DNA from: Candidatus Shapirobacteria bacterium
Lineage (GTDB): Bacteria; Patescibacteriota; Microgenomatia; UBA12405; UBA6130
Reading direction: 5' to 3'
Assembly: GCA_027039485.1 (NCBI GenBank)
Contig: JALWDZ010000026.1
Location: 1,093 to 65,092 of the forward strand
Length of the DNA: 64,000 nucleotides
A model generated the notes under the pieces. The model was given only the letters and a program-made list of their open reading frames with translations. It searched no databases and was not told where the DNA came from. Shown here one piece after another: positions 21,761 to 35,037 of the stretch. The first letter of the stretch is position 1. The number at the start of each line of letters is the position of its first letter. The position numbers were made by a program, and so were the translations under genes.

Positions 21761-22528
21761 TTAATAGAAAATATTACTTTTGCCCGCCGGGTTAGCGCTG
21801 GGGCTAGAAGACAAGGAAGGTTGTGGAGAAGAATAATGGAAAGTTTCTAGTTTTTTTAATACTTCCTTCTCTCCCTTAGTCAAAACAAAATCAGCAGGCT
21901 TTATCGAGATTGCCTTAAAGCGCGCGACATGACCGGCAAAATATAAACGCACCGAAAGCCTCAGCCGTAATAATTTAGCATCCTTGCCTTGGCTGTCAAA
22001 GCTAAATTCAATTGGCTGCAAAAGCGGTAAATTTGTTTCCAAATCCTTTAAAAAAGGTAAAAGATTTTTTCTTTCGCCAACAATTTCTAAATCAAGACGG
22101 GCTGTCGCCGGCGCTGATTTTTTGCGTGCCGAAGGTGTCGCTGTTTCTATCTGGCCCAAATCAAAACGCAAACTCTCAATCAAAAAACCATTGCGTTGGC
22201 AAGGAGCATCTAAAGCGAAGAGGACGCTAGCAATATCAGTTTGGCGTGGAAATGCTCTTTGCACCCAAAGAAGAGAATTTTTTAAGCTTTGCCAATCCCA
22301 ATTTTGCAAAACAGCCAGCTCTTCGGTTTTCTGGCGCAATATTTTTTGCTTTAGGCGCCACTGTTGCCATTCCTGCCTAGTTTGTTTTACAGCCGGCACC
22401 CAAAAAAGGAGCCCCGCCAAAAAAACTAAGCCCACTAAACCCCAATACAGCAAGAGGCGGCGAACAATTTTATTTTTAGATGCCAACGAAAACAGGCGCA
22501 GTTGCATCTCCAACCTATTCCCCATCAT
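21761..22528 (-). CDS. pilO: type IV pilus assembly protein PilO-like
   Basis: Single N-terminal TM plus coiled coil, downstream of pilM-pilN in the same operon. Confidence 0.4.
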   Translation of the reverse strand: MMGNRLEMQLRLFSLASKNKIVRRLLLYWGLVGLVFLAGLLFWVPAVKQTRQEWQQWRLKQKILRQKTEELAVLQNWDWQSLKNSLLWVQRAFPRQTDIASVLFALDAPCQRNGFLIESLRFDLGQIETATPSARKKSAPATARLDLEIVGERKNLLPFLKDLETNLPLLQPIEFSFDSQGKDAKLLRLRLSVRLYFAGHVARFKAISIKPADFVLTKGEKEVLKKLETFHYSSPQPSLSSSPSANPAGKSNIFY

Positions 22529-23076
22529 GAGTGATGCTTTTGAATAGATAAGACAAAAAAAGTTTTTGCCGGCGTTACCGTTAAAGTTTGTAAAGTAATT
22601 ATTCTGAATTGAGCAGTCGGGAAAAACGCCCGAAACGTATCCAACTTTTTCTCAAAGGCAGCTAAATCCAGCAAATCAGGCCAATAACCCTGGAGAATCA
22701 TTGTCTGCCCCTGCATTTTGAAATTGCTAATTACTGCCTTCTGACCCACAAATTTTTGAATAACAGCCAAATAAAAACTATATTTATCTCTCTTTTGCAA
22801 AACGGTACCCGCCTTACGCAATTCTACTTTTAAATATTTTTGTTGGGCTAATTGGGGAGCAAAAGTAGCCTTAGCTTGCTCTCTGGCTTGAATCTGACTT
22901 TGTAGTCGAACAAGCTGCTTTTTCAGCCAAAAATTACCTCCAATTGTTAATAAAACTAGAATAAGAAAGCTAAGAGCCAAAATAAGTGCCCTGGGGCGCC
23001 AGAAATTCAACCAGCGCCAGTATTGCAAATCTTCCCGTGTCCGCCCACCCAAAAGATTTACTCTATTCACCGCCAC
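22525..23076 (-). CDS. pilN: type IV pilus assembly protein PilN-like
   Basis: VNLLGGR start, single TM, coiled coil. Translationally coupled to pilM. Confidence 0.5.
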   Translation of the reverse strand: MAVNRVNLLGGRTREDLQYWRWLNFWRPRALILALSFLILVLLTIGGNFWLKKQLVRLQSQIQAREQAKATFAPQLAQQKYLKVELRKAGTVLQKRDKYSFYLAVIQKFVGQKAVISNFKMQGQTMILQGYWPDLLDLAAFEKKLDTFRAFFPTAQFRIITLQTLTVTPAKTFFVLSIQKHHS

Positions 23077-24074
23077 TGCCTTTCCGCCAAACCAATAGCC
23101 GCAGAAAAATCTAATTTTCTTTTCAAAAAGTTTTTATCTATTGTCTCTGCTAGCTGCATATTTGCCATCGGGGCGCCCATCTGCACTTCAATACCAATAG
23201 TCCTGATCAATTCGTCAGATAGCTTGGGCAGAGCGCTTTCTTGCCCAGAAAGAATAATCAAATCTACCGTTTCATGCCACTCCTCGTTAAAGGCAACCAT
23301 CGTTTGTCGGGCATCTTCGATCAAGCGTGTTAACAAAGGCAAAAGCGCTTTGCGCACTTTATTCTGCCATTTACCTTTTTCAAAACCATAAACATTTTTA
23401 TATTCTTGGGCCTTTAAATTATCCATTCCTAGGGCAACGCTTACGGCCCGGGTAAAGGCTTGGCTACCCACCGGAACAATACGGCTAAGATATGGCACGG
23501 CATCTTTAACTACTAAAAACAATGTTTCCTGCTGCTTGATGTCAAAAATAAGCGTCGGTTTGGCCCGAGCAGGCACCAAGGCGCGCGTTAAGGCAATGCC
23601 TTCATTTTCAACCGCCAGAGGCACCAAATCAGCCAAAGTTAATAATTGTTGAAGCCCATCCAAAAAGCTTTTTCGGGTGGCCACCACCCAAACATATTGT
23701 TGGCCATTATCCATCTTCTTAACTACCTGATAATCCATTTGAGCCTCAGTCACTGGATAGGGAATAAAAGTATCAGCCTCATAACGCAGGGCTGAAGCAA
23801 TCTCTTCCTCTTTCATCGGCGGCAAAACAACCAAACGACTAATAACCATTTTCTCAGGAATACCAACTACCACCTGTTTTGTTTTTATATTGCCAAGGGC
23901 CAAAAGTTTGTTAAGCTCGGGGAGAAGATTTTTTCTATTCCGCTCGTTAGCAAAATCGAGGCCAAAGTTGTTAACAACTTCTTCGAGAACAGTTAGGGTA
24001 AAATTAACGCCGCTTTTTTTTACCTGGGCAATCTGCAAAGCATTGTTGGTCAAATTGAGGCCAAAGTAATCCAT
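23067..24074 (-). CDS. pilM: type IV pilus assembly protein PilM (actin-like ATPase fold)
   Basis: 335 aa, N-terminal LGLDIG-like start (FGLNLTNNALQIAQV), actin/FtsA-like fold. Confidence 0.7.
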   Translation of the reverse strand: MDYFGLNLTNNALQIAQVKKSGVNFTLTVLEEVVNNFGLDFANERNRKNLLPELNKLLALGNIKTKQVVVGIPEKMVISRLVVLPPMKEEEIASALRYEADTFIPYPVTEAQMDYQVVKKMDNGQQYVWVVATRKSFLDGLQQLLTLADLVPLAVENEGIALTRALVPARAKPTLIFDIKQQETLFLVVKDAVPYLSRIVPVGSQAFTRAVSVALGMDNLKAQEYKNVYGFEKGKWQNKVRKALLPLLTRLIEDARQTMVAFNEEWHETVDLIILSGQESALPKLSDELIRTIGIEVQMGAPMANMQLAETIDKNFLKRKLDFSAAIGLAERQWR

Positions 24075-24111: not shown

Positions 24112-24609
24112 TTAAATTTTTTTTCCCAAAATCTTGTGAAGATAAAAATGATCAGACTTTTTGCCCACCGTGCCCATAAGCGATTTTTCCTGCACCTCGA
24201 GATCAAAATTGATAGTAATTTCTGGATATGATGAGCTTAACGGTTGACAGCGAGCTTGGAAATTTTTACATTTCACCGTTTTCGGAGTGAGGGCACTACT
24301 ATTAGAAGCAACGGCCCCGTTTTGGCAGCTAAAAACAGTGATCTCCCCATCTCGCCCCCAAAATGTGATTCTGTCTCGGTTAGCGCCATCGCAAAGGTCG
24401 GGGTGGTCGGCAAAACGTTGCAAGTAATCCTCTATAGCTAAAATTGCTGTACTCCCGCTTTGCCGCAACAATTTGCTGCTCAGCGCCTTATTTTGCCCTC
24501 GCAAGCTCATTACAAAAATAGCCGCTCCTACAGTTGCTAAAATAGCAAAAGTGCTAACAACAACTAAATTCTCAATCAGAGAAAAGCCCAGATGCCTTTT
24601 CATTGCCAA
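24112..24609 (-). CDS. prepilin-type minor pilin/pseudopilin
   Basis: Class III signal with cleavage motif G|FSLIE followed by a hydrophobic helix. Confidence 0.55.
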   Translation of the reverse strand: MAMKRHLGFSLIENLVVVSTFAILATVGAAIFVMSLRGQNKALSSKLLRQSGSTAILAIEDYLQRFADHPDLCDGANRDRITFWGRDGEITVFSCQNGAVASNSSALTPKTVKCKNFQARCQPLSSSYPEITINFDLEVQEKSLMGTVGKKSDHFYLHKILGKKI

Positions 24610-25010
24610 TTACTATAAACAGTAGCCATTTCTACCATGCCTCTTTTGCTCCACCAAACTTTCACCTTGACGGTCACATCTTTTTGCGTACCGCTAATAT
24701 GACAGTTTTGATAACAGGTTTGACAGGTGAAATATTTATAGCCCTGGCAATTTGTTTCTTGTTGGCATTTATTACAAAGAGTGCTCAAATTACCCCACCA
24801 AGATTGGTCTAGTTTTGCCACCCTAATATCCTCTAGCTGCTTTTTAGCTAATTGGGTGGCTAAAGTTTTTTGTCGGTTAAACCGAGCAGTGGCAATAATA
24901 AAAGTAGTTGCCGCTGCTAATCCCGAAAGCAAAAGGGCAGAAATAGAAATTACAAAAACTACTTCCAGCAAGGATTGACCTTTTTCTTTCTGGCCTATTT
25001 TTATTGACAT
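24600..25010 (-). CDS. prepilin-type pilin-like protein
   Basis: KGQSLLEVVFVISISALLL N-terminal prepilin helix, Cys-containing C-terminus. Confidence 0.5.
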   Translation of the reverse strand: MSIKIGQKEKGQSLLEVVFVISISALLLSGLAAATTFIIATARFNRQKTLATQLAKKQLEDIRVAKLDQSWWGNLSTLCNKCQQETNCQGYKYFTCQTCYQNCHISGTQKDVTVKVKVWWSKRGMVEMATVYSNWQ

Positions 25011-25570
25011 GCCTGCTCCTCGATAGTTCCCACCTTATATAAATTCACTTGGCGGCAACGGCCCTGGTAATAAAGACGAAAATAGCTTGGGTCGGTGGTG
25101 ACAGCACTTAACCGTCCTTCTAAAGCCAAAAAACGAAGCTTTTGGTTGTCGTCGCCATCACGATAAAGCCAATTACTCAAAGACTGCCATTCTTTTTCGC
25201 TAATAGTTTGCCAGGGCTGCTGGTAGTTATCGCAAACTTGGCGGTATTTCAAACTTTTATTAACGCTCCAAATTTCATAATAAGCCAATTCGTTGCATTG
25301 GCGGCTTTTTACACCGGCTCGCGCTTGACTGCGAAGCATGGCCAGATCTGTCGCCAAAACCTGAGCAGCCATATCCACCTGTTTTTTGGCCAAATAAAAG
25401 CGATAACCAGCAAAACTAAAACCTATTAGAAGACTAGCAATAGCTAAAGATACTAAAAGCTCTAAAAGGGTAAGGCCTTTCATTCTACGGCGGCGAAAGA
25501 TGATAATTGCAAATTGTGTGCCAATTATTACCACACCGAGGATTACGAGGACAACCATTGCGATTCCCAC
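25001..25570 (-). CDS. prepilin-type pilin-like protein
   Basis: MKGLTLLELLVSLAIASLLIG prepilin N-terminus. Confidence 0.55.
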   Translation of the reverse strand: MGIAMVVLVILGVVIIGTQFAIIIFRRRRMKGLTLLELLVSLAIASLLIGFSFAGYRFYLAKKQVDMAAQVLATDLAMLRSQARAGVKSRQCNELAYYEIWSVNKSLKYRQVCDNYQQPWQTISEKEWQSLSNWLYRDGDDNQKLRFLALEGRLSAVTTDPSYFRLYYQGRCRQVNLYKVGTIEEQACQ

Positions 25571-25946
25571 TAGATTCTAACGCAGCGCAAAGTACATAAT
25601 CAGCACCATTAGCAGAATAATAATAATAGTGTTGCCCCCCCTTAGGATCCTGAGGGAATTCGTGCATATAGGTAACACCATTACAAGTCCAAGCTCCTGA
25701 TGCAGGGGGTAAGCAGGCTCGACAAGTACCTCCATCGTTATAAGGATAACAGCCAATATCGCTGCGAATCATTTCCAAAACTGACCGGATTTGCTCTAAA
25801 TCCGCTTTTCTCTTATCATCCCGAGCCTTCCGGCCAGCCGATTGATAAGACACCAAGGCCACCGAAGACAGAAGAATAATAATCGTGGTTACTACCAATA
25901 ACTCGATAAAAGTAAAGCCTTTCTTCATTGAAGATTGCTCAAACAA
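25485..25946 (-). CDS. type IV pilin (tandem paralog 1)
   Basis: KKGFTFIELLVVTTIIILL, then RKARDDKRKADLEQIRSVLEMIRSD and a Cys-rich C-terminal domain. Confidence 0.7.
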   Translation of the reverse strand: MFEQSSMKKGFTFIELLVVTTIIILLSSVALVSYQSAGRKARDDKRKADLEQIRSVLEMIRSDIGCYPYNDGGTCRACLPPASGAWTCNGVTYMHEFPQDPKGGQHYYYYSANGADYVLCAALESSGNRNGCPRNPRCGNNWHTICNYHLSPP

Positions 25947-26329
25947 AAATACTTTCCTCTGCCATAATTACAACCATTATTAGTGCCAGTACTTCGGGCA
26001 TTACCATTACTGGCCTCTAGTTGCGCACAAATACAATAAGAGTCGCTTGTACACTTCCAAGAATAATTTCGGGAAGGTTTAGGATCCCTAGGCAAACCAC
26101 CAGGCAAATAAGTATTTCCCGGATTACAACCAACCGGATATCGGTCATGTACCGCCCGGTATTGCTCTAAGGCTTTTTGGACCGCTTTAATATCCTGGCG
26201 GCGGCGGGCATCTCGGGCCCGTTTTTGGGCTGCCGAGTAAGAAGTAGAAATAACAGCCATTAAAACAGCGATAATAGAGATAACTACCAACAATTCAAAG
26301 AGAGTAAAACCGGCATTCTTTTTCATCAT
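25925..26329 (-). CDS. type IV pilin (tandem paralog 2)
   Basis: NAGFTLFELLVVISIIAVLMAV, then KRARDARRRQDIKAVQKALEQYRAVHDRYP. Confidence 0.7.
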   Translation of the reverse strand: MMKKNAGFTLFELLVVISIIAVLMAVISTSYSAAQKRARDARRRQDIKAVQKALEQYRAVHDRYPVGCNPGNTYLPGGLPRDPKPSRNYSWKCTSDSYCICAQLEASNGNARSTGTNNGCNYGRGKYFCLSNLQ

Positions 26330-26811
26330 TGACTACATACATAATAACAGTTTTCGGAACAGTTTGCTTGGCAAATCGTTTCCGGACAACGCTGGCTTGA
26401 ATCGCTAATATCTACATCACCGCCATTTTCTAATTCAGCCCAGAGGCGAAAGCCATCGCCATCATTACTCACACAATAGCCGTAATGGTGGTTGCCTCCA
26501 AGAGGGTCATCAGGCACTTTGGTCATGTAGGTAGTATTGCCTTCTTGCCACTGGCTGCCAAAAAGTAGTGGGGGAGTGGGATAAGCCTGATGGTCGTTGT
26601 AATAAAGGCGAAGGCTATTTTTAATTTCCCAAAGATCTTGCTTCCGCTGGCTATCCCGGGCCCGCTGCCGAGCCGACATTAAATTAGGCAAAAGTATCCC
26701 GGCTAAAATAGCAATAATCGAGAGGACCACTAAAAGCTCAATGAGGGTAAACCCTTTTCGTCTCAGAAGGGTAAACCCTTTTTGCTTCGGAAGGGTAAAT
26801 CCTTTTTTCAT
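26326..26811 (-). CDS. type IV pilin (tandem paralog 3)
   Basis: KGFTLIELLVVLSIIAILAG, then RQRARDSQRKQDLWEIKNSLRLYYNDHQAYP. Confidence 0.7.
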   Translation of the reverse strand: MKKGFTLPKQKGFTLLRRKGFTLIELLVVLSIIAILAGILLPNLMSARQRARDSQRKQDLWEIKNSLRLYYNDHQAYPTPPLLFGSQWQEGNTTYMTKVPDDPLGGNHHYGYCVSNDGDGFRLWAELENGGDVDISDSSQRCPETICQANCSENCYYVCSQ

Positions 26812-27362
26812 GGAAGGCGAACGTTAGAACTAGTAACGCCAAAATTATATGTCTCACCGGCGCATTGGTAGCCATTATTATTATACTTATTATAATCAGG
26901 GTCATGGCTATTTTCCAAAACAGAAAAAAGTTTAAAATAGGTTCCGTCCGATTGGTAGCAATAGTGAAAACTACGCCGCGGATCCTGCGGTAACCGCTTC
27001 ATATAAACAACAGTGGCGTTATTAATATTTTCCTCGAAAGCATCTCCCCAATCTAGAACTGTATTTTGGGGACAATGGCGGTTAACAACAATTTTACCTG
27101 TCTCTTGGCCAGAACAATCAGTGCTTAAGGGGTAAGAGCGGTGATCGTTATAATACATTTCTAAGGCTCGGGCAATATTACTTAAGTCTGCCTTCCGTTG
27201 GGCATCGCGTGCTTTCTGCTGGCTAGTATGGTACTGACCAAAGCCAATGCTTGCCAAAATACCCAAAATAGCCATCACCACCAACAGTTCTATTAAAGTA
27301 AACCCTCTCCTCATTTTTTTATTGACCACAAGTGGCATCATAACAACAAGCGGTGCCCTCAC
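26808..27362 (-). CDS. type IV pilin (tandem paralog 4)
   Basis: RRGFTLIELLVVMAILGILASIG, then QKARDAQRKADLSNIARALEMYYNDHRSYP. Confidence 0.7.
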   Translation of the reverse strand: MRAPLVVMMPLVVNKKMRRGFTLIELLVVMAILGILASIGFGQYHTSQQKARDAQRKADLSNIARALEMYYNDHRSYPLSTDCSGQETGKIVVNRHCPQNTVLDWGDAFEENINNATVVYMKRLPQDPRRSFHYCYQSDGTYFKLFSVLENSHDPDYNKYNNNGYQCAGETYNFGVTSSNVRLP

Positions 27363-28026
27363 TATTACATCTATACTCTACACCAGGACAACAAGTCGAG
27401 CAAGTATCTGGCAAGCAGTAATGGTTATTTTCTCCCCCGCAAGTTGGCAAATAACATCCTGAGGGGAGGGTTGGGACAGGCGTGGGGGTAAGCATTTTTG
27501 TCGGTACAGGCGTGTTTGTTGGTTTATTGTTGACTTGCCCTGGGGGAGTAATATTGGGACTTGCTAAACCATAGGTATACTCTTGACCGTCTACTTGGCA
27601 ACCATCAGCGCAATATTCTTTTGGCCTAGGATAAGCCAAATTGGCATAAATAGCGAACCAGGTAGGACAATCGTTATCCTCAACGACAATTTTATAAGGT
27701 TGATGGCTTTGGGGATCACAGGGAACGATGTCTAACCAGGGGCGAAAATCATGGCTGTCGCAATGTTGCAACTTAACTAAATCCTCGCCATGAGGATAAC
27801 AACCATTGTCATTATAATAATCCTCCATGGCTCGTTGTAATTCGTGCAAATCGCGGCGCCGGCGGCCGTCATCAGCTTTACGAATTTGGGCTAAATAATT
27901 CATCAAAAAGATAATGGCCAAAATAACAATAATGGCCATTGCTATTAAAATTTCTACCAGAGTTACTCCTTGTTGGTTGCCTTTTGCTACCATGGCAGCA
28001 ATTTTAAAATATAATCGCCCCACCAC
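27319..28026 (-). CDS. type IV pilin-like protein with Thr/Pro linker and Cys-rich C-terminal module
   Basis: GVTLVEILIAMAIIVIL, then RKADDGRRRRDLHELQRAMEDYYNDNGCYP. Next a TPVPTKMLTPTPVPTLP linker, and an about 45 aa tail with 11 Cys. Confidence 0.6.
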   Translation of the reverse strand: MVGRLYFKIAAMVAKGNQQGVTLVEILIAMAIIVILAIIFLMNYLAQIRKADDGRRRRDLHELQRAMEDYYNDNGCYPHGEDLVKLQHCDSHDFRPWLDIVPCDPQSHQPYKIVVEDNDCPTWFAIYANLAYPRPKEYCADGCQVDGQEYTYGLASPNITPPGQVNNKPTNTPVPTKMLTPTPVPTLPSGCYLPTCGGENNHYCLPDTCSTCCPGVEYRCNSEGTACCYDATCGQ

Positions 28027-28742
28027 CAGCTAATTAGAGCGGCGGCAACTAGAAACGGCCCAAAAGCAACTGCCGTTTTCCAATGGGCTCGGCGTCGCCA
28101 GAGAAGGAACCCGGCCCACAGCCCTCCGGCCAAAAAAGCTAGATAAAACAAAAATAGGAGGCGCTGCCAACCCAACCAAAGGCCAAGGACAAAAACTAAC
28201 TTAGCATCACCCAACCCCATTCCTTTTCGACCAGTAATCAGATAAAGGAAAAGAAAGAAGAAAAGCCCGCCAAAAGCAGCTAAAAAGTCCAACCGGGGGA
28301 GGAAAAGCACCAAAACCAGCAGGGAAAGGAGAAAAACATCGGGAATAATTTGGTAATGAGCGTCAAAAAAGAAAATGGCTAAGAGAAACCAAACCAAAAG
28401 CAAATACATTCCCAGCCACGGCCAGGCTAAATTTTGCTGCCGCCACCAAACAAAAGTAGCCAAAAACAATAGACCGCCTAAAAGTTCTAGAATAAACCAC
28501 TCGGGATTTACTTTAGCCCCGCAGGTCCGGCACCGGCCGCGCAACAAAAGGAAAGATAAAAGAGGGATATTTTCCCACCAAGCTAACTGGCGATTACAAT
28601 TGTCGCAGTGGGAACGGCCCCACAAATCCAACCCTCCCTTTTGGGGATAACGACTAATTAAAACACCCAAAAAGCTCCCCCCGCTCGCCCCAAGAGCAAA
28701 CAGGAGGAGCTCCCAAAATATCATCTTTACTGGGGCACACAT
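27987..28742 (-). CDS. pilD: prepilin peptidase (A24 family)
   Basis: N-terminal Zn-binding CDNC...CRTCGA, catalytic GMGLGDAKL motif, about 7 TM. Confidence 0.8.
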   Translation of the reverse strand: MCAPVKMIFWELLLFALGASGGSFLGVLISRYPQKGGLDLWGRSHCDNCNRQLAWWENIPLLSFLLLRGRCRTCGAKVNPEWFILELLGGLLFLATFVWWRQQNLAWPWLGMYLLLVWFLLAIFFFDAHYQIIPDVFLLSLLVLVLFLPRLDFLAAFGGLFFFLFLYLITGRKGMGLGDAKLVFVLGLWLGWQRLLFLFYLAFLAGGLWAGFLLWRRRAHWKTAVAFGPFLVAAALISWWWGDYILKLLPW

Positions 28743-29383
28743 TTAAACAATGAATTTGTTCTGTCTGTCCAAGTAGCACTATCTATTTGGCTCTGACTGG
28801 TAACTGCGGTAATCTGGGTTGGCACCCCATCGGCGGTAGTGATGCCCAAATCCTTAAGCTTTGAACTTAGTTTTCTGTTTGCCTTTGCTTTAGGAATAAA
28901 GCAAACATAAACGGCTCCGCCATTGCCTGCTTCTTTAAAAAGATAGAGTCTATTCAAATCACTCCTGATATTATCGGCAAAAGGATCCTTTTGGGCAAAA
29001 GAGGCCTTTAATTCATCCGTCTTTATCAACTCTCCATAATTGCCATTAGCATCCTTGCAGCTGGAAACTTCAGCATTATAAGAACTGCCCGCACAAACAC
29101 CAAAGCCCGGCATTTTGCTCGTTAAACCCAAAACCTGGGACTCGTCAGCTCCATTGCCTTCGCCCCAAACTTCATCATCCCACGGATAATATTCTTGGGA
29201 AGCATAGTACCGCTCCAAGGCGCTCAAAACTTCGGCGGCATCATTTTGAAATTTCGCATCCCGAGCCTTATTGGTTTGTTCTACTGGATTTAAAGTAGAA
29301 AGAACCGCCACCGACAAAATAGCAATTAAGGAAATAACAATCAATAACTCAACTAGAGTAAAACCTTGTTTCAGTTGTTTCAT
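28727..29383 (-). CDS. pilA: type IV pilin, candidate major pilin (immediately downstream of pilC)
   Basis: KQGFTLVELLIVISLIAILSVAVL, then NKARDAKFQNDAAEVLSALERYYAS, 218 aa. Confidence 0.65.
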   Translation of the reverse strand: MKQLKQGFTLVELLIVISLIAILSVAVLSTLNPVEQTNKARDAKFQNDAAEVLSALERYYASQEYYPWDDEVWGEGNGADESQVLGLTSKMPGFGVCAGSSYNAEVSSCKDANGNYGELIKTDELKASFAQKDPFADNIRSDLNRLYLFKEAGNGGAVYVCFIPKAKANRKLSSKLKDLGITTADGVPTQITAVTSQSQIDSATWTDRTNSLFKCVPQ

Positions 29384-29399: not shown

Positions 29400-30602
29400 C
29401 TAAAATTGGCTGGTTAAGTTATAAATTGGCATAATCACGGCAAAAACTAAAAAGCCAACTCCAATACCTAACACTATCATGATAAGTGGCTCAATAGCAC
29501 TTGTCAAGGTTTTAACCCGTTGATCAGCTTCTATTTCAAAAAAATGAGCCAGGCGGAAAAGAATGGTATCCAATTTGCCTGTCTGTTCGCCGGTGGCAAC
29601 CATTTCTACCAGAATATCGGGGAAAATCATTTGTTCCCGCAACGACTCAGAAAGAGGAAAGCCCTTCTCGATCCGTTGGTCGACCCGTTCAAGAGCTTTC
29701 TGGTAAACCATATTACCGGCGGCTCGACTAATAGTTGCCACCCCATCTACCAAAGGCACCCCGGTATTAACCATCATCCCTAAAGTCCGGGTAAGATTGG
29801 TAAGAAGAGTGGCTTGCAAGAGAGGGCCTAAAATGGGTATCCGCAATTTTATTTCATCATACCGATAGCGCATCTCTGGTTGGCGCATTAAAACCTTCCC
29901 GGCCACCACTCCCGCCACTGCCAAGAAAGGTAAAAGCCAAACCAAAACGCCGCTTAAGCTGGCAATATCCATCAAGACGCGCGTTTCCCAAGGCAGTTGG
30001 GTATTAAATTCATTGTAAAGATTGGCCATCTTAGGAATGACAAAAGTTACCACAATAAAAATAACCCCTCCCATACCCACCAAAATAATCGCTGGATAAA
30101 TCATTGCCCCTTTTACCTTAGCCAAAAATTCTTGCCGTTTTTCCAAAGTATCCGCCAATTGCGTGAGCACCTTTTCTAAAACCCCAGCTTCCTCGCCGGC
30201 ACTGACTGAAGCAATGTAAATATCGCCAAATACCTCGCGATGCTTTTTTAGGGCCGCCGTAAAAGAGGAACCACCCTCGATATCGCGGAGAAGATCGCCA
30301 ATAACCAACTGCAACTTGCCGCTTTCCTGTTTTTCCAGTAAGGACAACGCTTCAGTCAATGGCAACCCGGCCTCAATCATCGTTGCCAGTCGGCGAGTAA
30401 AGGAGGCTACCTGCCCTCCCGAGACCCGGCTAAAGTGAAGGCGCAGCTTTTGCCAAAACGAAAGCTGATAAGGTTTAATGTCAACTAAAACCAAGCGGCG
30501 CTTTTTTACCAAAGAAATTGCTTCCCGCAAGTTGCGCGCCTCTACCAAGCCTTTATTGACTTTGCCTTGCCAATCTCGGGCTCGAAAAACGTATTTTTTC
30601 AT
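29400..30602 (-). CDS. pilC: type IV pilus inner-membrane platform protein PilC (GspF family)
   Basis: Two GspF repeats, 3 TM blocks, 400 aa. Confidence 0.85.
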   Translation of the reverse strand: MKKYVFRARDWQGKVNKGLVEARNLREAISLVKKRRLVLVDIKPYQLSFWQKLRLHFSRVSGGQVASFTRRLATMIEAGLPLTEALSLLEKQESGKLQLVIGDLLRDIEGGSSFTAALKKHREVFGDIYIASVSAGEEAGVLEKVLTQLADTLEKRQEFLAKVKGAMIYPAIILVGMGGVIFIVVTFVIPKMANLYNEFNTQLPWETRVLMDIASLSGVLVWLLPFLAVAGVVAGKVLMRQPEMRYRYDEIKLRIPILGPLLQATLLTNLTRTLGMMVNTGVPLVDGVATISRAAGNMVYQKALERVDQRIEKGFPLSESLREQMIFPDILVEMVATGEQTGKLDTILFRLAHFFEIEADQRVKTLTSAIEPLIMIVLGIGVGFLVFAVIMPIYNLTSQF

Positions 30603-30604
30603 TT

Positions 30605-31693
30605 TTACTCCGGTTTTATTATCGGCTGGCGGCGCTGCTGCTGTAAACTGCGCATTAATTCCTTAGGCCGGATAGCATATTCTTTGGCCACTTCAAGGCT
30701 AACGACCCCCTTATTAACCCAACTCGCCAAAGAAGTTTCCAAGAGGCGCATCCCCACTTCAGCTGAAGTTTGGATAATATTGTCAATCATATGGGTTTTA
30801 TCCTCACGGATAGCCGTCTGGACAGCGTGGTTATTTAGAAGAAGTTCAATGGCCGGCACCCGCCCCGGCTTGATGGTTGGAATTAGGCGCTGGGAAATAA
30901 CCGCCAAAAGGCTGTTGGCCAATTGCATTCGCACTTGGGCCTTAGCTCCGGTCGGAAAAACATCAACAATCCGGTCAATTGTCTCCGCTGCCGAATTAGT
31001 GTGCAAGGTAGAAAAAACCAGATGGCCAGTTTCGGCTACTGTCAAAGCAGCTTTAATCGTTTCCAAATCGCGCATTTCGCCAATCAAAACTACATTAGGG
31101 TCTTCGCGCAAAGCTGAGCGGAGGGCATTGGTCCAGCTGAGAGTATCGGAGCCAATTTCTCGCTGGGAGAAAACCGACTTTATGTCTTTGAAAAAATACT
31201 CAATGGGGTCTTCAATCGTCACAATATGCTCGGCCCGCGTTTCGTTAATCTCCCCCAACATAGCGGCTAGAGTGGTCGACTTACCATGGCCGGTGGGCCC
31301 GGTTACCAAGACAAAGCCCTGTCGTTCCTGAGTCAGTTTCCTTAGAATTGGCGGCAAATTTAAATCGTCAAGGCGGGGAATATTGGGAGGAATCAAACGC
31401 ATCGCTATTGCCAGGGAATCGCGTTGAAAATAGAAATTGACTCGAAAGCGCGCCTGGTCTTGAAAGACATAAGAAGAATCCATTTCCCGCTTGTCAAGAA
31501 GTTCCTGATATCTCTTCTCGCCCAACATCACCTTGGCCATGGCCATAATCTCCTCCTTGGCCATCGGCGTACCCTCGGGCAAACTAAAAAGCTGGCCATT
31601 AACCCGCAACAGGGGCCGCGCTCCTGCCAAAAGGTGGACATCTGAAGCCTTGTCCTTCACCGCCAGCGAGAGAATAGCTGCTAACTTATCCAT
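30605..31693 (-). CDS. pilT: twitching-motility retraction ATPase PilT
   Basis: Walker A GPTGHGKSTT, Asp box, His box, 362 aa, no N-terminal GSPII domains. Confidence 0.85.
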   Translation of the reverse strand: MDKLAAILSLAVKDKASDVHLLAGARPLLRVNGQLFSLPEGTPMAKEEIMAMAKVMLGEKRYQELLDKREMDSSYVFQDQARFRVNFYFQRDSLAIAMRLIPPNIPRLDDLNLPPILRKLTQERQGFVLVTGPTGHGKSTTLAAMLGEINETRAEHIVTIEDPIEYFFKDIKSVFSQREIGSDTLSWTNALRSALREDPNVVLIGEMRDLETIKAALTVAETGHLVFSTLHTNSAAETIDRIVDVFPTGAKAQVRMQLANSLLAVISQRLIPTIKPGRVPAIELLLNNHAVQTAIREDKTHMIDNIIQTSAEVGMRLLETSLASWVNKGVVSLEVAKEYAIRPKELMRSLQQQRRQPIIKPE

Positions 31694-31694
31694 G

Positions 31695-33479
31695 CTAATA
31701 TTTAGCCACCCGGAGAACTTCCTCCACGGTGGTAATACCCTCTAACGCCTTCAAATAGCCATCCTGCATCATCGTTACCATGCCCTCCTTTACAGCCGCT
31801 TTTTTAATTTCCTCGGCCGGCGCTTGTTTAAGGATAAGCTGCATAATTGCATTAGTCACCGGCAAAGTCTCAAAAATCCCAATTCGACCGTAATAGCCGG
31901 TAAAGTTGCACCCCTGGCAGCCTTTGCCGCGGTAAAGCTTTGGTTGGTCACCGGCTTTGGGGGGCCAAAGCGGGCCAAGCACTTTTTTCATTCCTTCAAC
32001 CACTTTTTCTGGCGGCTGGTAACTTTCCTTACAGTCATTATGGATCCGGCGGACAATCCGTTGGGCAACCACTGCGTTCAAAGCAGAAACTAGCAAAAAG
32101 GGCTCAACCCCCATATCAATTAACCGTGGCGCAGCTCCGGCAGCATCGTTAGTATGTAGTGTCGAAAAAACCAAGTGGCCAGTAAGGGCTGCCTCAACCG
32201 CCAGTTCAGCCGTCTCTTTATCGCGAATCTCGCCAACCATAATAATATCCGGATCCTGGCGCAAAAACGAACGCAGGGCCGACGCAAAAGTAAGCCCCGC
32301 CTGGGGATTTACCTGGACCTGGTTAACCCCTTTGATGTGGTATTCAACCGGATCTTCGATAGTCATCACGTTAACTTTGGTAGTGTTAATCTTAGAAAGA
32401 ACTGAATAAAGAGTAGTCGTTTTCCCGGCTCCAGTTGGACCGCAGACCACAATCATTCCGTGGGGGCGGCTAATGGCCTCTTGCAAATCGCGGAGTGTTT
32501 TCCCCCGCAAACCTAATTCTGGCAAGTCGGGAATTTTTTGCGTTTTCTTCAAAAGCCGCATAACTACCTTTTCGCCATAGACAGTCGGTGCTGTCGAAAC
32601 CCGGACGTCGATTTCCTGCCCATCACTGCGAAAAGTAAAGCGCCCATCCTGGGGCACCCGCTTTTCATCGATTTTCATATCGGCCAAAATTTTAATTCGG
32701 GAAACAACGGCATCATGGATCCGCCGCGGCAAAATAAGTTTCTCTTGCAAAATGCCGTCAATGCGGTAACGGACCCGGGTATCGCCCTCTTGGGGTTCAA
32801 TATGAATATCCGAAGCCCGGGCCTTGACCGCAAATTGCAAAATTGTCGAAACAACCTTGGCAATTGGCGCCTCGTGGATAATATTCTCCAGATGGTTAAC
32901 ATCCAAGACATTCTTTTGATAAGTTTTAGCCGTTTCCCCTAGGGCCTTAGTCACCTCGGCGGTAATTTCCTGGTTATAATGTTCGTCGATTGTCTCCTGG
33001 ATAAGCTTTTTATCAGCCAGGTAAGGCTCTATTTTTAAGCCTGTTTTCTTTTCCAAAAACTCCACCGTCTCCAAATCTAAAGGATTGGCCATAGCCACCG
33101 CCAGCTTTTTCTCTTTAGGGTCATAACGAAAGGGCACCACCAGATAATACTCGGCCACGCTTCGGGGAATAAAAGTAATGCTTTGGGGATCGAAAGCAAT
33201 TTCTTCTAAATCAGCATAGGGAACGCCCAAAAACTTCGCCTTAGCAGCTAGCAATTTCTTGGTGGGGATTAGATTTTCTTCATGAATAATATCTTCCACA
33301 TTCTTGCCGGTTTGAATTGCCTTTAGTTGAATATTTTTTACCTGGGCTGGCGAGAGCAGCTTCTCCTGGGCCAGAACGTCCAAAAGCGAGTGGGGCAGTT
33401 TTGTTTCTTCCATCACTTCCATTATAAACAAAATAAATCCCAAATCACAAGCACCCTGCCCCGACGGACGTCGGGGCAA
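31695..33479 (-). CDS. pilB: type IV pilus assembly ATPase PilB (GspE family)
   Basis: N-terminal GSPII domain, Walker A GPTGAGKTTT, tetracysteine CQGC..., 594 aa. Confidence 0.9.
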   Translation of the reverse strand: MPRRPSGQGACDLGFILFIMEVMEETKLPHSLLDVLAQEKLLSPAQVKNIQLKAIQTGKNVEDIIHEENLIPTKKLLAAKAKFLGVPYADLEEIAFDPQSITFIPRSVAEYYLVVPFRYDPKEKKLAVAMANPLDLETVEFLEKKTGLKIEPYLADKKLIQETIDEHYNQEITAEVTKALGETAKTYQKNVLDVNHLENIIHEAPIAKVVSTILQFAVKARASDIHIEPQEGDTRVRYRIDGILQEKLILPRRIHDAVVSRIKILADMKIDEKRVPQDGRFTFRSDGQEIDVRVSTAPTVYGEKVVMRLLKKTQKIPDLPELGLRGKTLRDLQEAISRPHGMIVVCGPTGAGKTTTLYSVLSKINTTKVNVMTIEDPVEYHIKGVNQVQVNPQAGLTFASALRSFLRQDPDIIMVGEIRDKETAELAVEAALTGHLVFSTLHTNDAAGAAPRLIDMGVEPFLLVSALNAVVAQRIVRRIHNDCKESYQPPEKVVEGMKKVLGPLWPPKAGDQPKLYRGKGCQGCNFTGYYGRIGIFETLPVTNAIMQLILKQAPAEEIKKAAVKEGMVTMMQDGYLKALEGITTVEEVLRVAKY

Positions 33480-33930
33480 ATTCTAATTACCAAAATCCTA
33501 ATCCGCCAGCTGGCGGACTAAACAAATTCAAATGACCAAAATTCAAATGCTCAAAAACATTGAAACTGTGTCATTCTGAGCGTTAGCGAAGCCCCAGGAC
33601 GTTCCGCCAGCTGGCAGAGTCGGGGTAAAAATCTAGCGAAGCGCATTAATCCCACACCTGACTAACTCTCATGCGCTCGCTCCGCTCGCTAGATCTTTAC
33701 CCCTACCGAAGGTGGATTTATTCCACCGAAGGGGGGCTTCGTCGCTTCGCTCCTCAGGATGACAAGGGGAGATGTCTTTTGTTTTGGTCATTTGATCATT
33801 AGGTAATTTGGTTATTGTTTAGGATTTGGGTCATTAGGATTTAGGATTTTGCTCAACCTAGTTCCTAGCTCCATTTGAACTTTTCACTTTCCCCTTCTTT
33901 CTCACTTTTCACTTTTCACTTAAACTTTTC
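33478..33930. repeat. nested-palindrome MITE/REPIN-like element, longest copy, core present as an inverted duplication
   Basis: Arms aaattctaattaccaaaatcctaatc.../...ggatttgggtcattaggatttaggatttt. Internal 230-nt imperfect hairpin built from two inverted copies of gtcatYctgag...gaagcccc...ggggtaaaRatctagcga. 3' cctag/cactttt tract. Confidence 0.8.
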
Positions 33931-35037
33931 ATATAGCTCTTCCACTTTTTCTTTGAATTCCCGGCGGAAGCGGGCCTCGTCAAACTGTTCTGCTTGTCGG
34001 CGGCAGGCTGCCGGTTGGTAATGCCACTTTCGGAAACGCCGCAAAGTTTTTACCAAAACCTCAACCGTCGCCGGCCCAAAAAACAGGCCTGTTTTCCCGG
34101 CAACCACCGTTTCCCGCGCCCCTCCCCCATCATAGGCAATAACCGGCCGGCCGCTGGCCTGGGCTTCTAAACTCACCAAGCCAAAGTCTTCCTCCTGGGG
34201 CATGATGAGTGCCTGTGCCTGCCGATAAAGCTGCTTTAATTGGCTTTCGCTTACCTTGCCCCAGAATTTAATATTTTTCTTGGCCTTCTTCATTAATTTT
34301 TTTTGCGCCCGCCCTTCGCCGACAATCCACAACGGCCAACCCAGGCGGTTAAAAGCTTCAACTGCCAGTTCAACTCGCTTGTACTCCACTAAACGGCTCA
34401 CTACCAAAAAGGGGGCATCCTTGTCAGCTGGTTTTGGGGCCATCTTGAAACGGCGATAATTAATGCCCGGATAAACAACTTCACTCGGCCGCTGATAATA
34501 ATGCCAAACCCGTTCGGCTACTGTTTTCGAAATTGCCAAAATAGCGTCCGGCCGCTGGCCATAAAGCCAGTCATCCTGCCTCAAGCCTGCCAGCCAGGGA
34601 AAAAGCCGCCGCCAAGGAGTTAAATCAGGGCGCCAAAGATAGCGCGGCGGTGTCAAACAGTAATGGAGATGGAAAGTATCTGGCGGGGTGATGATTGCTT
34701 TAGCGGGCCCTGAGCTTAGGGAAATGACCAAATCAAAACTTCGAAAGGAAAAACTTTCAAAGGCATAACCCAAAAGGGGATAATACCAATAAACATGCCT
34801 TTTTGCCGCCGGGAATTTTTGCAAAAAACTAGTTTCCACCAGCCGGTGGCCCAAGAAATTTGCCTTTTCCCGATCATAAACTGCAGTAAAAATCCTTGCC
34901 TCTGGCCAAATTTTTAATAAGCTCAAAATCACCCGCTCGGCACCCCCCCAACGGTTAAGCCAGTCGTAAACCAAAGCGACCCTCACCGGAGCACCTCCCG
35001 ATAAAGACCTGCTATTCCCCGGGCCATTTTTTGCCAA
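33916..35037 (-). CDS. glycosyltransferase family 1
   Basis: LEAQASGRPVIAYDGGGARETV E-x7-E motif. Confidence 0.7.
   Translation of the reverse strand: MAKNGPGNSRSLSGGAPVRVALVYDWLNRWGGAERVILSLLKIWPEARIFTAVYDREKANFLGHRLVETSFLQKFPAAKRHVYWYYPLLGYAFESFSFRSFDLVISLSSGPAKAIITPPDTFHLHYCLTPPRYLWRPDLTPWRRLFPWLAGLRQDDWLYGQRPDAILAISKTVAERVWHYYQRPSEVVYPGINYRRFKMAPKPADKDAPFLVVSRLVEYKRVELAVEAFNRLGWPLWIVGEGRAQKKLMKKAKKNIKFWGKVSESQLKQLYRQAQALIMPQEEDFGLVSLEAQASGRPVIAYDGGGARETVVAGKTGLFFGPATVEVLVKTLRRFRKWHYQPAACRRQAEQFDEARFRREFKEKVEELYEKFK

Follow-up and report, generated by a model that had tools for sequence, protein, structure and literature searches.

The five-gene pilin array

The window (the whole 64,000-nt stretch of DNA analyzed here, from a Candidatus Shapirobacteria bacterium) raises the question of what five neighboring pilin genes that share one conserved block do in a single pilus locus. 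All five pilin ORFs were confirmed as consecutive genes on the minus strand, at positions 25485–27993. The boundaries were taken from gene calls on a near-identical contig (L001) together with the sequence, the outer coordinates in a preliminary description of this DNA having been those of the longest ORFs. The genes are the following:

27319..27993, minus strand: P5, GspG-type pilin domain with a Pro/Thr linker (~27463–27546) and a 10-Cys tail (~27322–27462)
26808..27314, minus strand: P4, GspG-type pilin, the paralog nearest to classical GspG (KR pair before LPQDP)
26326..26811, minus strand: P3, GspG-type pilin, leader with a 24-nt tandem repeat ×3 (26744–26817) that reads MKKGFTLPKQKGFTLLRRKGFTLIELL
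25925..26329, minus strand: P2, GspG-type pilin, 134 aa, net charge +9
25485..25928, minus strand: P1, GspG-type pilin, 147 aa, 8 Cys

Neighboring genes lie 4 nt apart or overlap at their start and stop codons, and all are full-length: every copy has a start codon and a signal peptide of its own. Each product has a prepilin signal and, after it, (K/R)A(R/D)DxxR(K/R)xD(L/I)...(L/M)(E/R)x(Y/I)...YP. In mature numbering (F = +1), the columns G-1, T2, E5, A31, D33, R36, D39, Y57 and P58 were invariant in the alignment of all five. A second common block is formed by an aromatic residue, P-x-D-P (in which P, D and P are invariant), and a conserved Leu in an L-E/A motif. BLASTP between paralogs gave 57–97 bits over 61–168 residues, and the joint profile, of which each sequence is itself a member, matched the five with 171–214 bits; because of these scores, the likeness among P1–P5 is not a matter of chance. 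The ORFs, the alignment and the BLASTP matches bear out the preliminary description insofar as it reported five neighboring paralogous pilins with a shared block and differing globular domains. The proteins are rich in disulfides (4–16 Cys). It had also called the C-termini divergent; the globular domains do differ, but the PxDP block, common to all five, had been overlooked.

Assignment to the GspG/T2SSG-type pilins

The PF07963 (N_methyl) model matched all five genes, with E-values from 8.3e-7 (P5) to 2.8e-10 (1.4e-8 in P2), and TIGR02532 exceeded its cut-off in each of them, as expected for a type IV pilin signal. By whole-protein score, PF08334 (T2SSG; gathering cut-off 21 bits) was above the cut-off in P1 (27.3 bits, profile positions 6–87), P3 (24.0 bits) and P4 (23.7 bits) and below it in P5 (16.6 bits). 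P2 had no PF08334 match at E ≤ 0.01; against the joint profile, which includes P2 itself, it scored 171 bits over both blocks. P4 ORF residues 46–80 (TSQQKARDAQRKADLSNIARALEMYYNDHRSYPLS) corresponded to T2SSG profile positions 4–38. The top NCBIfam model was TIGR01710 (GspG) for every gene, with 55.1 bits in P1, 47.8 in P2, and 58.8, 59.4 and 32.3 in the remaining three, all under the 88.85-bit trusted cut-off of this equivalog model.

The five-gene profile matched PulG (5wda) at 3e-15 over residues 1–97, both blocks included, and also the EpsG/GspG structures 3gn9, 3fu1, 4lw9, 3g20, 2kep and 1t92. The block aligned without gaps to Klebsiella PulG at A31, D39, L40, A46, L47, D/E48, Y50, D53, Y57 and P58, and the PxDP block matched PulG as well (LPQDPW). 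EpsG and pilins of Geobacter and Thermus also matched the first block. In the AF2 model of P4 (pLDDT 90.3), a single helix of residues 15–66 held the whole block, and we observed the lollipop fold, in which a long N-terminal helix packs on an antiparallel beta-sheet. Within the N-terminal helix of the pilin, the block makes up the second half (alpha1-C), and it lies inside PF08334.

Searches with the five-gene profile returned 318,388 cluster representatives at E ≤ 1e-3 and 37,077 50%-identity clusters at E ≤ 1e-10. Among the top 132 representatives, R32 was found in 120, D33 in 124, R36 in 124, K37 in 121, D39 in 115, Y57 in 114 and P58 in 119; PxDP was present in 133 of 145. Homolog names included Patescibacteria, Shapirobacteria and Daviesbacteria, which point to Microgenomatia, and some databases call the homologs “general secretion pathway protein G”. 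Judged from these sequences, the block is a signature of a very large catalogued pilin family and not an oddity, because R32, D33, R36, K37 and D39 are the consensus among the top 132 representatives. The word “unusual”, which had been applied to the motif, must therefore be dropped: the motif is what PF08334 matches, it aligns ungapped with PulG, and it is the consensus of the 37,077 clusters. The refuting condition set in the preliminary description was a block that is just the generic prepilin helix, with no extra conserved positions. The block is indeed the alpha1-C half of that helix; R32, D33, R36 and K37 are real additional positions (PulG has D32, R33, V36 and V37), yet they are themselves a subfamily consensus.

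P1–P5 resemble GspG/PulG/EpsG in the class III signal, in the identical ungapped register of the alpha1-C block, in the L-P-x-D-P after the alpha-beta loop, and in the small beta-sheet globular domain. Apart from scores below the equivalog cut-off, they differ from GspG in their setting, a pilus operon that includes PilT and PilM but lacks a secretin, in occurring as five tandem paralogs instead of one, and in C-terminal regions that are Cys-rich. A C-terminal calcium-binding loop is a further feature of GspG. In our literature search, nothing was found that ties Patescibacteria pilins to GspG. For later scans, (K/R)-A-R-D-x-x-R-K-x-D-L...A-L-E-x-Y-x-x-D-x-x-x-Y-P...P-x-D-P can be read as “GspG/T2SSG-type pilin”; as a discovery the motif carries little weight. 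Few pilin families in the sequence databases are as large as the one it marks.

The pilus operon

The operon runs pilB-pilT-pilC-pilin-pilD-[five]-[three minor pilins]-pilM-N?-O?, and we found the same layout on L001 and in two diverged genomes (L003 and L004). The genes around the array are:

31695..33479, minus strand: PilB-type assembly ATPase (Pfam MshEN 2.3e-17, T2SSE 3.8e-131)
30605..31693, minus strand: PilT-type retraction ATPase, 362 aa, without the MshEN domain (Pfam T2SSE 3.2e-50)
29400..30602, minus strand: PilC platform protein (Pfam T2SSF 7e-60, two stretches)
28727..29383, minus strand: pilin A, 218 aa, candidate major pilin (N_methyl 1.7e-7)
27987..28742, minus strand: PilD prepilin peptidase (Pfam A24_N_bact 9.7e-27, Peptidase_A24 8.9e-16)
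25001..25483, minus strand: M1, minor-pilin-like prepilin without the block (N_methyl 3.2e-6; weak GspH and PRK10506 matches)
24600..25010, minus strand: M2, minor-pilin-like, degenerate G-Q-S-L-L-E signal (N_methyl 21.0 bits, cut-off 21.2 bits)
24112..24603, minus strand: M3, minor-pilin-like prepilin (N_methyl 3.1e-5)
23067..24074, minus strand: PilM (Pfam PilM_2 2.1e-28)
21761..23076, minus strand: two ORFs, putative PilN and PilO from their position after pilM and synteny with L001 and L003

The two putative PilN/PilO ORFs had no Pfam match. PilB-type and PilT-type ATPases, PilC, PilD and PilM were all identified by Pfam in one locus, the gene set of type IVa machinery. A type II secretion system would be expected to bring the secretin GspD, GspC, GspL/M and the minor pseudopilins H–K; the 20-kb gene tables of the locus showed no secretin, GspC or GspL domain. 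Nine genes in the locus are prepilin-like. In a sixth pilin, A, upstream of pilD, the block is present in weaker form (KARDAKFQNDAAEVLSALERYYASQEYYP), and M1–M3 (24112–25483), downstream of the array, do not have it. No other pilin of the locus is as conserved as pilin A, which shows 84–90% identity to its orthologs and also has the highest Gly/Ala/Ser/Thr content (32% versus 22–30%); we consider it a candidate for the major pilin, the compositional argument being a weak one.

Type IV pilus operons with several pilins are a recognized hallmark of CPR bacteria, and P1–P5 are members of a known pilin family in an ordinary operon of this kind. As reported for CPR genomes, type IV pilus operons and a large pilin family (the CPR-enriched fam000005) are widespread, without a secretin (PMC6744442). 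The type IV pilus locus 1 of the saccharibacterium Nanosynbacter lyticus TM7x comprises pilB/T/C/M/N/O/D and five pilins (PMC11623550). In gene content, the present locus is like these, with pilB, pilT, pilC, pilD, pilM/N/O and several pilins but no secretin, and here as there pilins are found that carry accessory C-terminal modules. It differs from TM7x locus 1 in having nine prepilin-like genes and not five and in belonging to Microgenomatia and not Saccharibacteria. Beyond the pilin module, there was no detectable similarity to the Thermus thermophilus PilA cluster (PMC5131608) or to the heteropolymeric pilus (8pfb) and modular minor pilins of Streptococcus sanguinis. A 2026 preprint on Pam pili was also considered; these are donor-strand-exchange pili, a different system from this locus.

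Age and constraint of the paralogs

Each of P1–P5 has a same-position ortholog in L003 and L004 with 64–81% identity, whereas the paralogs are only 29–41% identical to one another. Identity to orthologs was lower for the downstream prepilins, at 46–51% for M1, 43–51% for M2 and 45–51% for M3. The dN between P1–P5 orthologs was 0.10–0.29, far below the saturated dS. Against L004 it was 0.10–0.19, compared with 0.17 for PilD and 0.09 for PilC/PilT; it reached 0.56–0.59 for M2/M3 (against L004) and 0.55 for M1 (against L003). We must also note that the synonymous sites of the orthologs are saturated (pS 0.67–0.92), which permits the statement that dN is far below dS but not a ratio, and that dN/dS across the paralogs is meaningless at 29–41% identity. 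The array was identical in three independent samples. Because the positional orthologs are closer than the paralogs, dN is far below dS and the samples agree, P1–P5 are old, order-conserved duplicates, each copy under purifying selection.

Roles of the five pilins

The preliminary description had instead inferred a recent local duplication with C-terminal domains under diversifying selection, so that interchangeable copies would provide antigenic or adhesion variation. The globular domains of the paralogs are indeed very unlike one another in length, loops and Cys pattern, and arrays in other genomes had 1 to 6 tandem both-block members among the matches listed, a rough figure from a scan of contigs with P4 homologs, mostly of distant phyla. 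These members were counted by HMM scan, as a plain motif pattern misses orthologs with a single substitution (e.g. GRDAQR in L003). Against variation stand the one-to-one positional orthology, a dN similar to that of PilD, and the absence of differences among the three samples. Moreover, the C-terminal parts themselves had a dN of only 0.13–0.23 against L004, far below the saturated dS, and the C-terminal residues of P4 hardly varied among 48 homologs with identities as low as ~50%. In the Neisseria pilE/pilS system, one expressed locus is accompanied by silent copies; these are truncated, have neither a promoter nor the N-terminal helix, and share conserved mini-cassettes of high similarity. 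P1–P5, unlike such cassettes, are full-length copies with start codon and signal peptide and show low pairwise identity. The idea of diversification or antigenic variation is largely refuted, and we regard it as highly improbable. Old, individually constrained paralogs argue for a division of labor within one pilus and not for variation.

Another option is that P1–P5 are alternative major pilins, each building its own filament type on shared machinery for different hosts or tasks, as with PilA4/PilA5 of Thermus or the two pili of TM7x. Each of the five is closer to GspG, the major pseudopilin, than to GspH–K, P4 keeps the E48 and K/R87-88 pair of GspG homopolymerization, and several filament types per CPR cell are documented (PMC11623550). 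However, translational coupling within a single operon leaves the genes no space for separate regulation, the basic pair is absent from four of the five, and a separate, more conserved pilin occupies the classical major-pilin position beside pilC, which makes this arrangement unlikely. Less probable than either of these is that P1–P5 are true type II secretion pseudopilins, i.e. GspG orthologs that drive secretion and form no surface pilus. TIGR01710 being the best NCBIfam model and the database label of some homologs would favor it, but the scores of 32–59 bits are under the equivalog cut-off, the locus encodes PilT and PilM but, in its 20-kb gene tables, neither a secretin nor GspC or GspL, and CPR genomes are without PilQ/secretin and an outer membrane (PMC6744442).

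We therefore favor, with a probability of about 0.85, the reading that P1–P5 are GspG/T2SSG-type type IV pilins in a complete, retractile type IVa-like operon of a CPR bacterium, and that they are non-redundant accessory or low-abundance subunits of one pilus. The membrane-inserted precursors would be cut by PilD after the Gly of G|F-T-L-I-E; the position of pilD directly upstream of the array is circumstantial evidence for this processing. PilB and PilC, with PilM and probably PilN/PilO, would then extract the pilins into a filament that PilT would retract. The role of major subunit would fall to the 218-aa pilin adjoining pilC, and the fast-evolving downstream prepilins M1–M3 may form the priming or tip complex. 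Since P1–P5 are ancient, order-conserved and individually under purifying selection, they would most likely be five non-redundant accessory or low-abundance pilins in the same pilus.

Within each subunit, the block would form an amphipathic alpha1-C ending at Y-P, where the globular domain starts, and the extra R32, D33, R36 and K37 most likely make intra-helix and inter-subunit ion pairs. In PulG, E44/D48 pair with R87/R88 of subunit P+1 (PMC13081927); in classical GspG, residue 48 forms salt bridges with the basic residues 87/88, just before L-P-x-D-P, of the next subunit. This basic pair is kept only in P4, and the salt-bridge analogy with GspG may fail for P1, P2, P3 and P5.

The P5 tail and the P3 leader

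Alternative tips or adhesins among the five are possible, P5 being the most plausible case given its extra C-terminal module. In its AF2 model, the pilin domain had pLDDT 85–98 and the linker and tail ~40–56 (with an alignment five sequences deep). The tail cysteines were invariant in four orthologs. The 10-Cys tail had no Pfam match at E ≤ 1 and zero candidates in a word-index search, i.e. no known counterpart was found by either route. One could picture the five GspG-like pilins as a fixed adaptor that joins tip complex and shaft, with P5 presenting on its Pro/Thr stalk an undescribed small module of 10 cysteines, knottin-like, by which an episymbiotic CPR bacterium would adhere to its host in a lineage-specific way; we consider this proposal doubtful. 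The tail, small and open to testing, is a candidate host-binding module of an uncultured episymbiont lineage.

In the leader of P3, TRF detected a repeat with a period of 24 and 2.7–3.1 copies, which triplicates G-F-T-L, whereas GFTL is present just once in the P3 orthologs of L003 and L004.

Organization of the pilus operon

The region at 21.7-33.5 kb of the window is a single, tightly packed minus-strand operon. The pil machinery genes were assigned by Pfam, and gene starts were taken from the calls on contigs L001 and L002, which are 99.7-100% identical to the window. In the order of transcription, the operon contains:

31695-33479, minus strand, PilB (MshEN and T2SSE)
30605-31693, minus strand, PilT (T2SSE)
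29400-30602, minus strand, PilC (T2SSF)
28727-29383, minus strand, pilin A (218 aa)
27987-28742, minus strand, PilD (Peptidase_A24)
27319-27993, minus strand, pilin P5
26808-27314, minus strand, pilin P4
26326-26811, minus strand, pilin P3
25925-26329, minus strand, pilin P2
25485-25928, minus strand, pilin P1
25001-25483, minus strand, M1, prepilin-like
24600-25010, minus strand, M2, prepilin-like
24112-24603, minus strand, M3, prepilin-like
23067-24074, minus strand, PilM (Pfam)
after PilM, minus strand, two ORFs positioned like PilN and PilO

The conserved block and its family

All five pilins P1-P5 indeed share a motif, with G-(F/V)-T-(L/F)-(I/V/F)-E followed about 25 residues after the signal by (K/R)A(R/D)DxxR(K/R)xD(L/I)xx(I/V/L)xxx(L/M)(E/R)x(Y/I)xxxxxxYP. 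A31, D33, R36, D39, Y57 and P58 (mature numbering, F = +1) are invariant, and the paralogs match one another with 57-97 bits. The block is weaker in pilin A and absent from M1-M3. The C-termini were described as divergent, which holds only in part: P1-P5 have in common a second block, consisting of an aromatic residue, P-x-D-P and a conserved Leu in an L-E/A motif.

The preliminary description regarded the first block as unusual, but it matches Pfam T2SSG (PF08334), for which P1, P3 and P4 exceed the cut-off; the P4 match coincides exactly with the block (ORF residues 46-80, profile positions 4-38). Among NCBIfam models, TIGR01710 (GspG) scored best for each of the five, though under its cut-off. 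In single-sequence searches against solved structures, the block aligned to Geobacter PilA-N, Thermus PilA4 and Klebsiella PulG. The five-pilin profile matched PulG at 3e-15 over residues 1-97, as well as EpsG, XcpT-like and GspG crystal structures. In this profile alignment, PulG is in ungapped register with P1-P5, and its A31, D39, L40, A46, L47, D48, Y50, D53, Y57 and P58 fall on positions conserved here, while its R87-R88-L-P-Q-D-P-W corresponds to the second block. Assembly of PulG/OutG pili requires salt bridges between successive subunits, in which E44 and D48 pair with R87 and R88 of the following subunit (PMC13081927). At position 48, P3 has Arg and the other four pilins have Glu, and the basic pair is kept only in P4 (K-R before L-P-Q-D-P). 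The AlphaFold2 model of P4 (pLDDT 90.3) has one N-terminal helix, spanning residues 15-66, which holds the entire block and has Y-P at its end; XcpT and EpsG ranked first in Foldseek, with weak E-values.

An exhaustive HMMER search of 1.84 billion cluster representatives with the five-gene profile returned 318,388 proteins at E<=1e-3, of which 37,077 reached E<=1e-10 and 242 reached E<=1e-30. Residues were counted at fixed mature positions in the 132 of 145 top representatives with a recognisable signal. R32 (120/132), D33 (124/132), R36 (124/132) and K37 (121/132) were so frequent that the supposedly extra charged residues are the family consensus. The other counts were D39 (115), L40 (111), A46 (111), L47 (111), E48 (101), Y50 (114), D53 (120), Y57 (114) and P58 (119, each of 132), and PxDP occurred in 133/145. 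Named homologs belong to Patescibacteria, Ca. Shapirobacteria and Omnitrophica ("type II secretion system protein (G)"), and Méheust et al. reported a large CPR-enriched pilin family in T4P operons without secretin (PMC6744442). P1-P5 are new, uncharacterised, yet ordinary additions to a pilin family already described, in an operon of a familiar type.

The block was also found in repeated soluble domains without a nearby signal helix, in the database proteins P0130 and P0131, and is therefore part of the T2SSG domain and not of the signal peptide. Judging from these sequences, it can occur as a soluble domain in repeated copies. Among the proteins from the representative search, some have 2-6 T2SSG-type domains in tandem per polypeptide: P0130 (755 aa; six near-identical repeats, no hydrophobic helix), P0131 (483 aa) and P0124 (334 aa), which resembles two neighbouring pilins read as one protein.

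Duplication age and selective constraint

A local duplication with diversifying C-termini had been proposed. The operon and its gene order recur in two diverged relatives with ~72-75% nucleotide identity, L003 (GCA_054021735.1) and L004 (SRR10312495), and the best match of every window pilin is the gene at the same position there. Identity to these orthologs is 84-90% for A, 66-72% for P5, 72-80% for P4, 73-81% for P3, 69-74% for P2, 64% for P1 and 43-51% for M1-M3; among the paralogs P1-P5, it is only 29-41%. With synonymous sites saturated (pS 0.67-0.92), dN against L004 was 0.10-0.19 for P1-P5, 0.17 for PilD, 0.09 for PilC/PilT and 0.56-0.59 for M2/M3; M1 gave 0.55 against L003. The array is identical across the window, L001 and L002, and many C-terminal residues are nearly invariant over 48 P4 homologs, down to ~50% identity. 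Taken together, these comparisons point away from a diversifying cassette and towards duplications that are old, with purifying selection acting on every copy. Elsewhere, 2-6 tandem members with both blocks occur among the matches listed, in a poorly targeted sample of loci (six in L005 and L006, three in L019 and L033).

Evolutionary rates form a steep gradient inside the operon, with A slowest and P1-P5 intermediate. Since ortholog identity is lowest in the minor-pilin-like M1-M3, these, and not P1-P5, are the fastest-evolving parts, possibly those contacting the host.

Proposed roles of the pilins

The best candidate for the major subunit is pilin A, because it adjoins pilC, shows the strongest conservation and is richest in Gly/Ala/Ser/Thr (32%), a criterion that follows PMC11623550. 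PilD would cut the prepilins after Gly, and the filament would be polymerised by PilB/PilC with PilM, and probably PilN/PilO, and retracted by PilT. M1-M3 may form a fast-evolving priming or tip set, with P1-P5 as putative non-redundant accessory pilins. The Cys count is even in all nine pilins (range 4-16), which fits disulfide-stabilised extracellular proteins and agrees with the CPR-enriched thiol-disulfide oxidoreductase reported in PMC6744442.

The P5 tail, the P3 leader and an intergenic repeat

Two of the pilins carry further features:

27322-27546, P5 C-terminus, Pro/Thr-rich linker and Cys tail
26744-26817, P3 leader, 24-nt tandem repeat, ~3 copies

The P5 linker varies in length. The tail of ~45 residues follows the pattern CY.PTCG...YC.P.TC.TCCPGV.YRC...GT.CCYD..C, with all ten cysteines invariant in the only four orthologs found. 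Neither Pfam nor a word-index search gave a match to the tail, and AlphaFold2 yielded no confident model of it (confidence ~40-56). The P3 repeat encodes MKKGFTLPKQKGFTLLRRKGFTLIELL, i.e. three successive G|FTL prepilin-peptidase-like sites, of which only the third leads into E5 and the hydrophobic helix. It is identical in L001 and L002; the orthologs in L003 and L004 have one G|FTL site and lack the repeat.

Upstream of pilB, 33480-33935 is one copy of a scattered family of intergenic repeats, which share 74-100% identity and lie in both orientations; related pieces are at 15.6-15.8, 19.7-20.0, 56.9-57.1 and 58.25-58.65 kb. L001 is otherwise near-identical to the window, but the homology between them stops exactly inside this copy (window 33931). 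The 50 differences in 12.9 kb all fall within 33766-33929, which suggests that an intergenic element, recombinogenic or mobile, lies at a breakpoint of synteny.
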